Assembly: GCA_964016885.1 (NCBI GenBank)
Contig: OZ024746.1
Coordinates: 72,912,001-72,976,000, forward strand
DNA: 64,000 bases
Reading direction: 5' to 3'
Source: Eledone cirrhosa
Lineage: Eukaryota
Position 1 is the first letter of the stretch; each line of letters opens with the position of its first letter. The notes below the pieces were generated by a model. The model saw only the letters and a program-made list of their open reading frames with translations, was not told the origin of the DNA and searched no databases. A program made the translations under genes and the position numbers. This document shows, piece by piece, positions 11,501 through 62,347 of the stretch.

Positions 11501-14500
11501 ACACTGATCGCGTCAAAATGACGTAATGCAGAAGTCAGGCATACAGACAGATATTATAAGGGCGCGACGTTACATCTATGTATATATCTAAAAAGAGAAA
11601 GACTAAGAATTATAGAGAGAGATCGCTAAATCGCCTAATGCATTCACTAGGGCATTGAAAATTTGAAATTTTTTTTTGCTCTAAACACTCACGTGTAAGG
11701 TTTGAAAAAACTCGGTTGGGTGCTTCTCGAGTTTTAGTGATTGGACAGACAGACAGATAGACATACATTCTCTGTTTTAGTAATATAGATGTGTTTCATT
11801 AGAAACCAGTATGCACATTTGAATTGGGTGAAAGAGCGAAGAATTTTTGATTATTTACCAATTGAACTGCCGATTGGCAATTGAACTGGTTTTAAAATTT
11901 TGAAAATTACTTAAATATCATAGGTAATGCATCTTATTGGAGATATTGTAACGAAAGTGTTAATAATCTTAAGCGGAAACTAAAGTGAGCTTGACAAAAC
12001 AGGGTCAACCAGGATCTTATAGAATTGGACTACATCAGTTTCAACAATCAGTGTTCCCGTTGTTTAGGCAACTGAACAATCTGTTTATGAAATTAATATG
12101 TGTATGGTTGAACATTCCACAGACACGTGTACCCTGGATGTCATTCCCTGGAGGAATCAGCATGACATAGTGTTTGACAAGGTTTGTCTTTGGAATTACA
12201 TATACAGTATTTTCGACGGGCTTCCAAACAGTTTCCTTCTGTCCAAATCTATTCACATGGGTCTATCTGATGTTATGGTAAATGACACACTGTATACAAA
12301 TCAGAATGGCAACTGACACCACAAATCACATGTATTCTACATTTGGCCGTTATTTCCGGTCAAAAATCGATCCCATCATCCAACTATGAATAGATAAACC
12401 ACAATAGATCATAAACCCAAAGTCACGATCTACATCAATTATAATTGATGGATGTGTACACTGTATATTACTAAGAACAAATAAAAGACATCATTGTTTC
12501 AAATAATATTTTGTTATCTCATGTAAAACATAATGAACATTTTATTTATAAGGGAGATAATACATACCATCCTGTACTACCTCTTTCAGGCATTCATTCT
12601 TTCTGGAAAACAAAGATGAGAAAGAATTAATTTGTAAATAAATGTTGTTAATTTAGTGTTATGAAAGAGACACGAAATAGAATAGACGTCCAACAGTTTT
12701 AACGTTGAGTGTTACAACTGTCCAATCAACGGAACAGTTTGTTTGTGAAAATTATGTCTAAGTGGCTGAAAATTATGTCTAAGTGGCTGAGCATTCCATA
12801 TGTATGGAGTTTCAGTGTGTTATACCATTTTAGCCCTGTGTTCAAATCACACTGAAATCTATTTTGACTTTTAATGATCTGGTTGGAAAAGATAGACAGC
12901 AGCCAACTCCTTGCGTTGATTATATCGACTAGACATTTCAACGTATGGGCCTTGAACTTCTCATAAAGTGGTAGGGACAGCCTCATAAAATACGGCCTGT
13001 CATGTGCACTTAAACCTCACGGAGTCTTTACCTCTGCAGGTTTGAAAAGAGGCAATTTCTGAGAGTTAAGTATCGACTCCCGTAGAGGGACATTATTTAC
13101 CGCGAAATGATGAAAGGCAAATCCGACTCCGAGGGAATTTGAACTCAAAGAGAAGAGAGCCCGAAGAAATATCGTAAAGCATTTTATCTACATTGTAATG
13201 TGTGTGTGTGTGTGTGTGTGTGTGTGGTGTGTGTGTGTGTGGCTGGATGGATGTATGAATAGATCGATGTGTGCCATAGTGAGATAAAGTATATTTTTGG
13301 TATCTTTAAAAGCTGGTGGATCTTATCCTGCTCTTCAGATCTGAGAGCAGATTTCTTCCAGAGAAAGAGAAGAGAGGAAGTGATTGAGAATGTAAGAAAG
13401 AGATACAGAGGAAGAATCGACCCTAGAACAGAACTGGTAGTTTCTTTATTGACCTCGATAAGATAATAGGCAATGTAGCTCTCATTGGGTTTTGAACTCA
13501 TTACACAGAAAGCTGGAATTAATACTGCACAACATTCTATCCGACGTTCTAACAACTCTTCCATTAACCCAAACCAAATGTCAAATTCCTAATTTTTATT
13601 TGATTATTAATATTATTCCGTAAGATATTTCTGTTATAGTAGTGGCCAATACAAATATAGGATGACGACTTTGGTGGCGGCAGCAGCAGCAGTAGTAGCA
13701 GCAGCAGTCTACAAACTATTCCAGTCCACCTAATTTCACTAACAAGTCATGGATTAACCCAGGTAATCGTAAATAGTATTTGCTAAGGGTGCTACGTAGG
13801 GGGATCAAACACAGGCCTTAATGAATTCGAAGTGAATTTGTTAACCATTCGGCAATATAGAGTCCACAGAGTAGAATACACTTACTTCGTGACATCCTGT
13901 ATTTGAGAACAACCTGGAGAATGGAGATAAAAATATATTAATCATGTTACTCTATACCAAGTAAGAGATGTAAATATTGATTTCTTCTTTTGCGCTAAGA
14001 ATACATTTGTATAGTTGATTGGATCGAAACCAATAAATTAGTGACATTCACAACATAAATATATCCATAACAACAGTGGATTGGCAGTATTGGTAGGGAG
14101 TCGGACAACATACTTTACTTTAGGGCATATAGTTACGTCTCTTTAGAATCAAGCACTGTAGCTTTCTAATTCAGTGTGTTAGCATAGAAATGGTGCCTGA
14201 AAAAATAATGTTAATTTTATAGGTGCATCGATAGCTGCTATAAAGGGTACGTAGAAATTCTAAATCTATGTTCTGGTAAAACAAAATAAAAATTAAAAAT
14301 TAAAAATGGCCTCTAGTTGGTTGTTTGGTATCGTTCATACGATTTTCAAAAGACGAAATTGAATGAAACCATCTCTTCCAATATTAGAAATTTAAAATGT
14401 TATTAAAAGTCAGAAGTTAGAAGCTGAAACTTAAATTAAATAGATTAAGCTATCGAAAATAAGGATAAAAGTGAATATCAAATCTCTAAAATTTACATTA

Positions 14501-62347: not shown

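Follow-up and report, generated by a model that had tools for sequence, protein, structure and literature searches.

Helical repeats stapled by one cysteine pair per unit are known from the Helicobacter Hcp/SEL1-like proteins, from COA7 and from the middle repeat of CagY, and the product of the octopus gene described here is predicted to share this construction. The Hcp repeat comprises about 36 residues with a C-x7-C spacing, and the CagY repeat has C-x12-C. In the spliced 28-exon model of the octopus gene neither spacing has a match, and two x7 gaps arise only if a small exon type, exon C, is skipped. The loose likeness to CagY suggested in the initial annotation of the locus is thus not upheld by the Cys spacing, and a repeat of DPANN and Patescibacteria (CPR) is the closer analogue. 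Abalone VERL is, as predicted for the octopus gene product, an extracellular protein of a mollusc built from tandem repeats that evolve in concert and under selection. Its repeats are ZP-N beta domains of about 150 residues and have no likeness to the octopus repeat in length or Cys pattern. Schistosome micro-exon genes (MEGs), the products of which act at the interface with the host or the environment, have very small coding exons and show accelerated evolution, as does the octopus gene; each MEG exon is reported to be symmetric, whereas in the octopus only pairs of the exon types A and B, as well as exon C, keep the frame (PMC4350168). The octopus gene also differs from the MEGs described there in that its exons repeat a single module in tandem, every copy of this module carrying a fixed Cys pair. 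The mussel MgCRP-I family (PMC4558851) and the conotoxins (PMC9048919) share with the octopus gene invariant cysteines, hypervariable residues between them and an expansion driven by duplication. Both are short processed peptides, MgCRP-I having six Cys and all motifs in one exon (PMC4558851), whereas the octopus gene has two Cys per 21-residue, predicted helical unit, split over two exons. The octopus gene would belong with the disulfide-bridged helical repeats and the hypervariable genes with a Cys framework, as a variant.

The window analysed in this study is a stretch of 64,000 nucleotides from Eledone cirrhosa. It is AT-rich (GC 29-38%), contains abundant microsatellites (94 tandem-repeat rows) and is built of tandem units of about 4.5 kb with 80-98% mutual likeness. 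The C-x2-(I/V)-x8-C repeat reported for it earlier has no match in continuous, unspliced sequence in any of the six frames of the window. The pattern emerges on the minus strand once two alternating micro-exon types, A and B, are spliced. Exon A is present in 13 copies of 28 nt (phase 1-2, AG acceptor, GTAAGT donor), and exon B in 13 copies, three of which measure 32 nt and the others 35 nt (phase 2-1, GTATGT donor; GCAAGT in B13). In the splice model, all of them lie on the minus strand, starting with exon A1 at 62320..62347 (28 nt), which carries the first Cys of the repeat, and exon B1 at 61737..61771 (35 nt), which carries the second Cys and the predicted amphipathic helix. These are followed by A2 (57584..57611) and B2 (56754..56788), A3 (53634..53661) and B3 (52508..52542), A4 (47408..47435) and B4 (46231..46265), A5 (43067..43094) and B5 (41916..41950), A6 (38673..38700) and B6 (37547..37581), A7 (33729..33756) and the short, 32-nt B7 (32931..32962), the hyper-divergent A8 (31153..31180) and B8 (29842..29876), A9 (25879..25906) and B9 (25296..25330), A10 (21077..21104) and B10 (20276..20310), A11 (16587..16614) and the again short, 32-nt B11 (15670..15701), A12 (13886..13913) and B12 (12568..12602), and finally A13 (3087..3114), which lies outside the coordinates given earlier, and B13 (2482..2513; 32 nt, GC donor).

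Joining these 26 exons yields 810 nt without a stop in the coding frame, as compared with 33 and 18 stops in the other two frames, and 26 Cys with gaps alternating between 11 and 8 residues (7 twice). The C-x11-C spacing is invariant in 13/13 repeats, and the linker is 8, or 15 once exon C is included. The repeat is real, with an open frame after splicing and the reported pattern in 12 of the 13 repeats, which are exactly those of 12568-62347. These limits of the array were set too narrowly, as repeat 13 lies at 2482-3114 and the array, judged by intron homology, continues past both window ends. Also, the helix-like hydrophobic spacing was borne out: across the 13 repeats, columns 1, 4, 13, 14, 17 and 18 together contain just one non-hydrophobic residue. 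Helix propensity is only moderately better at positions 7-19 than in the remainder (0.44 vs 0.57).

A strict splice scan of the minus strand detected 26 short (≤35 nt) candidates with strong acceptor and donor, namely 24 of the 26 A and B exons and two copies of the 24-nt exon C, compared with four candidates on the plus strand as background, none of them under 53 nt. In a lenient scan for further exon types only weak-donor candidates were obtained (plus-strand background: 59). All 28 exons are 24-35 nt long and, despite about 76 inferred exon changes, have intact AG acceptors and neither stops nor frameshifts; a crude estimate of the probability of no stop over these changes is about 0.008, and that of invariant Cys about 0.002. 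The longest continuous frame containing an exon has 36 residues and none reaches 40, and exons of 24-35 nt dispersed over more than 60 kb would hide the repeat module from annotation. Exon lengths modulo 3 are 1 for A, 2 for B and 0 for C, and the frame survives the skipping of exon C or of any A+B pair, which would permit splice variation. We infer that these micro-exons are spliced in vivo.

The two probable C exons were placed by the splice scan at 31827..31850 (24 nt, symmetric phase 1-1, encoding a Cys-free linker) and at 14563..14586 (24 nt), both on the minus strand. Each of them comes after a 32-nt B exon, has a long pyrimidine tract and a GTAAGT donor and keeps the frame, and the model including them comprises 28 exons, 858 nt and 285 amino acids without a stop. 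Because exon C comes after each of the two short exons B7 and B11, the two 'x7' gaps of the initial annotation are probably wrong, resulting from the missed 24-nt exon, and would become x15 gaps marking super-repeats. By intron homology, the order of these is R1 R2 (R3-R6) R7 C; R8 R9 R10 R11 C; R12 R13, with repeats 3-6 as an internal expansion, and the two larger blocks differ by a four-repeat insertion. The exons of repeat 9 are identical to those of repeat 1 and the exons of repeat 10 to those of repeat 2, their introns being 95-99% identical. Separate genes per super-repeat were considered and rejected, as no convincing ATG-bearing first exon was found between short B and exon C.

The intron upstream of exon A1 (62348..64000, minus strand) is 96.4% like the B8-A9 intron, and therefore at least one further repeat lies past the high end of the window. 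At the low end, the expected exon A14 is absent from its place. At 1588..1653 (minus strand), intron homology identifies a copy of the sequence found ahead of A exons, truncated by unrelated sequence, which suggests that repeat 14 was displaced past the window or lost. From the homology at both sides it follows that the gene is open at both window ends. Signal peptide, start and stop are all absent from the window, and we therefore infer, rather than observe, an extracellular placement of the product. Exon B13 is strongly hydrophobic (mean hydropathy +2.0 vs -1.2 to +0.5 in the other 12 B exons), its polar face having turned hydrophobic, and its GC donor is otherwise of near-perfect consensus. 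With this donor used the repeat would continue, and with the donor unused the frame would end 8 residues later; the resulting read-through tail may resemble a GPI-anchor signal.

Exons diverge 2-3 times faster than introns overall, and in a single recent duplication the excess at non-synonymous sites is about tenfold. Exon B copies differ by 24.0% compared with 9.0% and 12.8% in the flanks, and by 25.1% compared with 8.3% in deep intron; exon A copies differ by 15.9% compared with 15.1% and 10.9% in the flanks, where two copies that have another intron inflate the upstream value, and by 14.9% compared with 8.6% in deep intron. Divergence was higher in the exon than in the deep intron in 68/78 pairs for exon B and in 45/72 pairs for exon A (6/78 pairs with <200 aligned nt were dropped), these pairwise counts not being mutually independent. 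Parsimony changes per site in exons were 1.9-3.3 times those of the flanks, even with a tree built from the exons. For the duplicated block, R7-C-R8 versus R11-C-R12, pN is 0.237 (27.5/116), pS 0.089 (2.5/28) and intron divergence 0.0235 (112/4767). Within it, exons A8 and A12 differ at 13/28 nt. The two copies of exon C differ at 5/24 nt, and each of these five differences falls in a codon with a changed amino acid. For the surrounding intron the figure is 44/2333; the mismatch count of exon C is reached by 4/2243 intron windows, the local background being above the block mean.

Of the 29 codons that differ in the six nearest repeat pairs, 26 are changed non-synonymously and 3 synonymously, and 11 carry multi-nucleotide changes. 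The difference between pN and pS is not significant (Fisher p 0.067 for the duplicated block and 0.53 for the six pairs), over all pairs both values are about 0.21-0.22, and a codon model is best near omega 1 (lnL -377.4 at 1, -378.2 at 2 and -381.1 at 0.5). Because pS itself exceeds the flanks in the six pairs (0.072 vs 0.027, p 0.016), part of the exon divergence may stem from a raised mutation rate of exons or from conversion by paralogues outside the sequence analysed. Local mismatch hot spots occur in introns too. The two Cys are the only invariant columns across repeats. Thus, frame and Cys are constrained and exons are accelerated over introns; diversifying selection is the favoured, not proven, cause of this acceleration.

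Searches of the 285-residue model for EGF (CxC), C2H2 (C-x2-4-C-x12-H-x3-5-H), twin-CX9C (C-x9-C) and Cys-LRR (LxxLxLxxN/C) patterns gave no match for any of them, and CC, CxxC and C-x7-C are likewise absent, in agreement with the earlier statement that the repeat does not fit the Cys spacing of EGF or C2H2 domains. A likeness of the G-C-x-x-I-T-D stretch to Cys-containing LRRs was rejected for want of LxxLxL. Relatives of the repeat were searched with profiles based on exon B. Among 1.84 billion representatives there was one match (E 2.7e-4), a repeat protein of Rhodomonas salina, which was dismissed as chance since mostly intron-derived columns were aligned. A profile of exon B plus an archaeal segment yielded 51 candidates among 5.8 billion proteins of 80-2000 aa, none at E≤10. 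In simulations with 13 repeats, the first search had a power of 20/20 at 80%, 15/20 at 70% and 3/20 at 60% identity; for the second, scoring power with 285 residues, leaving aside the word threshold of the search tool, was 19/20 at 70% and 13/20 at 60%. The searches would accordingly detect a relative with 13 repeats if its identity were 70-80% and would mostly miss one at 50-60%, and given the rate of change, orthologues may exist in other cephalopods. Six single-exon-B frames of 23-36 residues each had no match in Pfam, at low power, and neither exon B-based nor analogue profiles matched PDB sequences. In the openly available articles, five peptide motifs and topical searches yielded nothing on the repeat. 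The octopus repeat module is real and apparently undescribed.

A presumed likeness of the octopus repeat to DPANN surface repeats prompted a scan of GTDB genomes with a degenerate motif derived from the octopus repeat, by which at least 123 loci were found. Among the matches listed, 70/123 loci carry two or more C-x2-[ILV]-x8-C motifs, 57 of these 70 being DPANN or Patescibacteria by title, and the next gap after the motif is 13 in 238/332 cases and 8 in 3. Eight examples of this repeat were compared with Pfam and NCBIfam, and none of them passed the cut-off of a family. The analogue profile had 124 matches in longer proteins, and among the best 120 of the 124 every named one is a prokaryotic hypothetical protein. 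An N-terminal hydrophobic stretch is present in 102 of 119 further Met-starting members, again among the matches listed. AlphaFold predicts a 15-residue helix and a short helix per repeat, forming an alpha-solenoid (pLDDT 97.8), and for a variant with a 10-residue linker the same fold with an 11-12-residue helix (pLDDT 91.3). The fold neighbours are TPR, PPR and SEL1 solenoids with weak scores (E ≥0.35; Z ≤8.4), and this lack of a clear match in fold searches is not proof of a new fold. An atlas search returned unnamed archaeal clusters and TPR-like neighbours, the whole-protein query being dominated by another domain, and phage genomes queried with the analogue segment had no match. Since the arrays of the analogue begin on an x11 pair in 48 cases versus 4 and end on x11 in 69/107 versus 1 for x13, C-x11-C is likely its disulfide unit. 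The DPANN/Patescibacteria repeat is a large family that itself had no Pfam/NCBIfam model or close solved fold in these searches.

The octopus repeat has in common with this family the C-x11-C spacing, K3 (50%), I4 (66%), D/N6, K/R10, a hydrophobic residue at 17 and the arrangement in tandem arrays. Its per-column scores at K3, I4, D6 and K10 are +2.5, +3.2, +1.8 and +1.9 bits, these columns also being those of the search motif. On a profile of 86 motif-free members the octopus model scored 75 bits, a value attained by 0/1000 column-permuted and 1/1000 pattern-keeping decoys; this forward score of 72-75 bits sums 13 near-identical repeats, the best single domain having 16.7 bits. With the hydrophobic pattern kept, the position-score p is 0.028, and in the reverse search none of 120 analogue members listed matched the octopus profile at E<0.001. 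As the motif that retrieved the family was taken from the octopus repeat, the likeness scores are overstated, and we treat it as a structural analogue and not as a family of which the octopus repeat is a shown member. The analogue linker is 13 residues in 265/318 cases, 9 once and never 8 (among the matches listed), whereas the octopus linker is 8 or 15; in the analogue the linker (13; 9-38) ends with D-x-S-[IL]-C, whereas in the octopus it ends in Gly and lacks the D-x-S-I cap. The packing residues Tyr14 and Ala18 of the analogue are absent in the octopus, where Leu14 and Val18 score -1.3 bits each, and Leu at 14 is common in the analogue only within the 10-linker subtype. Furthermore, the analogue genes are prokaryotic and intron-free. 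The disulfide-stapled helical hairpin solenoid proposed in the initial annotation gains indirect support from the analogue, which shares the C-x-K-I-x-D-x3-K-x2-C half and is predicted to fold in this way; it loses from the missing short-helix cap, given which the packing of the octopus repeat may differ. The likeness raises a testable question of convergence or transfer, of which convergence is more likely.

We consider it somewhat more probable than all other readings taken together that the gene encodes an extracellular disulfide-stapled helical-repeat binding protein, an alpha-solenoid with a variable face under diversifying selection. The window would then be the middle of one spliced octopod gene with a secreted or surface-anchored product, in which each 21-residue unit is encoded by an A exon and its B partner, together a module of phase 1-1. 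This phase is characteristic of modules for extracellular domains. Cys1 would be placed in a short turn or helix, residues 7-19 or so would form an amphipathic helix, and a Cys1-Cys13 disulfide would staple the two. Stacking of the units would produce an alpha-solenoid, interrupted at intervals of four or more repeats by the 8-residue Cys-free linker from exon C. Unequal crossing-over, involving ~4.5-kb units as well as larger blocks, would expand the array and keep introns alike, while selection would drive amino-acid change at exposed positions and hold the Cys, the hydrophobic face and the frame. The resulting variable surface would serve in molecular conflict, i.e. in recognition of microbes or parasites, in binding of prey or predator targets, or in gamete or self recognition. 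A more elaborate version, to which we give only slight probability, is an octopus-specific variable repeat receptor, diversified by A+B skipping, unequal crossing-over and positive selection. It would be the helical equivalent of the VLRs of lampreys or of Dscam in insects, and its module may have been transferred horizontally from the DPANN/Patescibacteria repeat and then split by introns.

Exon change at such a rate speaks more for recognition than for a role that is structural alone. A structural fibre or coat protein of egg case, spermatophore, skin or sucker matrix, in which length matters over surface and exon change is relaxed, is unlikely, although the array is long and expanding, dN/dS is near 1, and octovafibrin, with 29 EGF repeats, is a precedent in octopus for a fibre protein of disulfide repeats (PMC10336842). 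Relaxed constraint predicts equal rates in exons and introns, not 3-10 times higher ones, and Gly/Pro/His/Tyr-rich blocks are missing from the 285-residue model (0 Pro, 0 His, 2 aromatics). The nine KK pairs of this model could point to a polyprotein precursor from which cleavage at Lys-Lys would release numerous short Cys-x8-Cys loop peptides, acting as pheromone, in defence or as venom. Parallels are cuttlefish pheromone precursors, cleaved at dibasic sites into Cys-bearing peptides (PMC3484142), and mussel multi-MgCRP-I precursors with repeated Cys motifs under positive selection (PMC4558851). Repeats 3-7 are without KK, however, the model has no Arg and hence no KR, RR or RK, and the x8 gap extends to 15 with exon C, whereas the KK-spanning x11 never varies, which renders a precursor quite improbable. 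Similarly improbable is a decayed or assembly-inflated array, shaped by exon-limited gene conversion or mutation, or consisting of two haplotypes joined in tandem as the larger blocks: the identical exons of repeats 1/9 and 2/10 with their near-identical introns, the missing exon A14, the GC donor of B13 and the lack of an annotated product in the exon B-based searches would fit, but the 28 exons are intact throughout and the blocks differ by their four-repeat insertion. The least probable of these rivals is an intracellular or organellar protein with paired Cys for metal or redox functions, comparable to COA7, a protein that the fold search with the analogue also returned as a weak neighbour (Foldseek E 1.4). 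The model has neither signal peptide nor N-glycosylation sequon, which would fit such a protein, yet CxxC, CC, CX9C and His are absent as well, and fast amino-acid turnover is unusual for intracellular Cys metal or redox proteins.

Returning to the binding protein, the functions listed in the initial annotation (adhesion, gamete recognition, venom, immunity) can be weighted towards recognition by the exon acceleration, and not be narrowed to one of them. If expressed as modelled, the gene would represent an undescribed animal repeat module evolving with a signature of molecular conflict. To our knowledge, few fast-evolving recognition proteins of cephalopods have been named, and the gene is a specific candidate for a recognition role in immunity, in venom or between gametes.

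An RNA-gene reading of the window was discarded after an Rfam scan at gathering thresholds and a tRNA scan, both with 0 hits. The window also contains a Penelope-like GIY-YIG remnant (Pfam PF01541) that indicates an octopod genome, its one match being an Octopus bimaculoides protein with 54% identity.

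Mismatches between the two copies of the duplicated block of the micro-exon gene (13866-16305 versus 31133-33549 in the window) are unevenly spread, the majority lying in 13889-15012 and few in 15013-16305, and this uneven distribution suggests patchy gene conversion. All three intronic remnants of a Penelope-like GIY-YIG endonuclease are on the plus strand (8502-9059, 17505-17984 and 34672-35151). The latter two have the same translation and were copied along with the block. In the 9.4-kb intron between exons B12 and A13, the Penelope remnant lies between the arms of two long inverted repeats (6480-7050/10006-10562, 92%; 7447-7870/9580-10011, 97%). 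A SINE-like element of ~150-190 nt, devoid of tRNA or Rfam matches, occurs 13 times in the window in both orientations, for example at 7290-7440 and in 12 other places.

The last B exon in the window, B13 (2459-2513 including the read-through stretch, minus strand), displays a hydrophobic shift and a GC donor with an otherwise near-perfect consensus; if this donor were read through, translation would stop after a putative GPI-signal-like tail. For the two probable exon C copies (14563-14586 and 31827-31850, minus strand), no upstream first exon was evident between the short B exon and exon C; their translation resembles a signal-peptide end or beta-type linker. Since MAFFT places exon A over exon B with the common pattern C-x2-3-[IV]-Q-D, a possible common older origin of both half-repeats is hinted at; their intron flanks share no likeness.

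The cryptophyte protein P0001 (Rhodomonas salina, EukProt), the sole exon B profile match among 1.84 billion representatives, is an unrelated chance match; it has ~27-residue repeats bearing C-x2-C. Putative surface proteins of DPANN/Patescibacteria form a large unnamed family with up to 14 or more copies of a 26-residue C-x11-C-x13 repeat (L005:886-2112 (-), L021:130-1533 (-), L056:613-1434 (+) and at least 67 other loci; further members among the matches listed, P0003-P0122). Eight examples scanned at cut-off matched no Pfam/NCBIfam model, and fold searches returned no close solved match to the alpha-solenoid predicted for the repeat. Some members also contain Lcl_C or peptidoglycan-binding domains.
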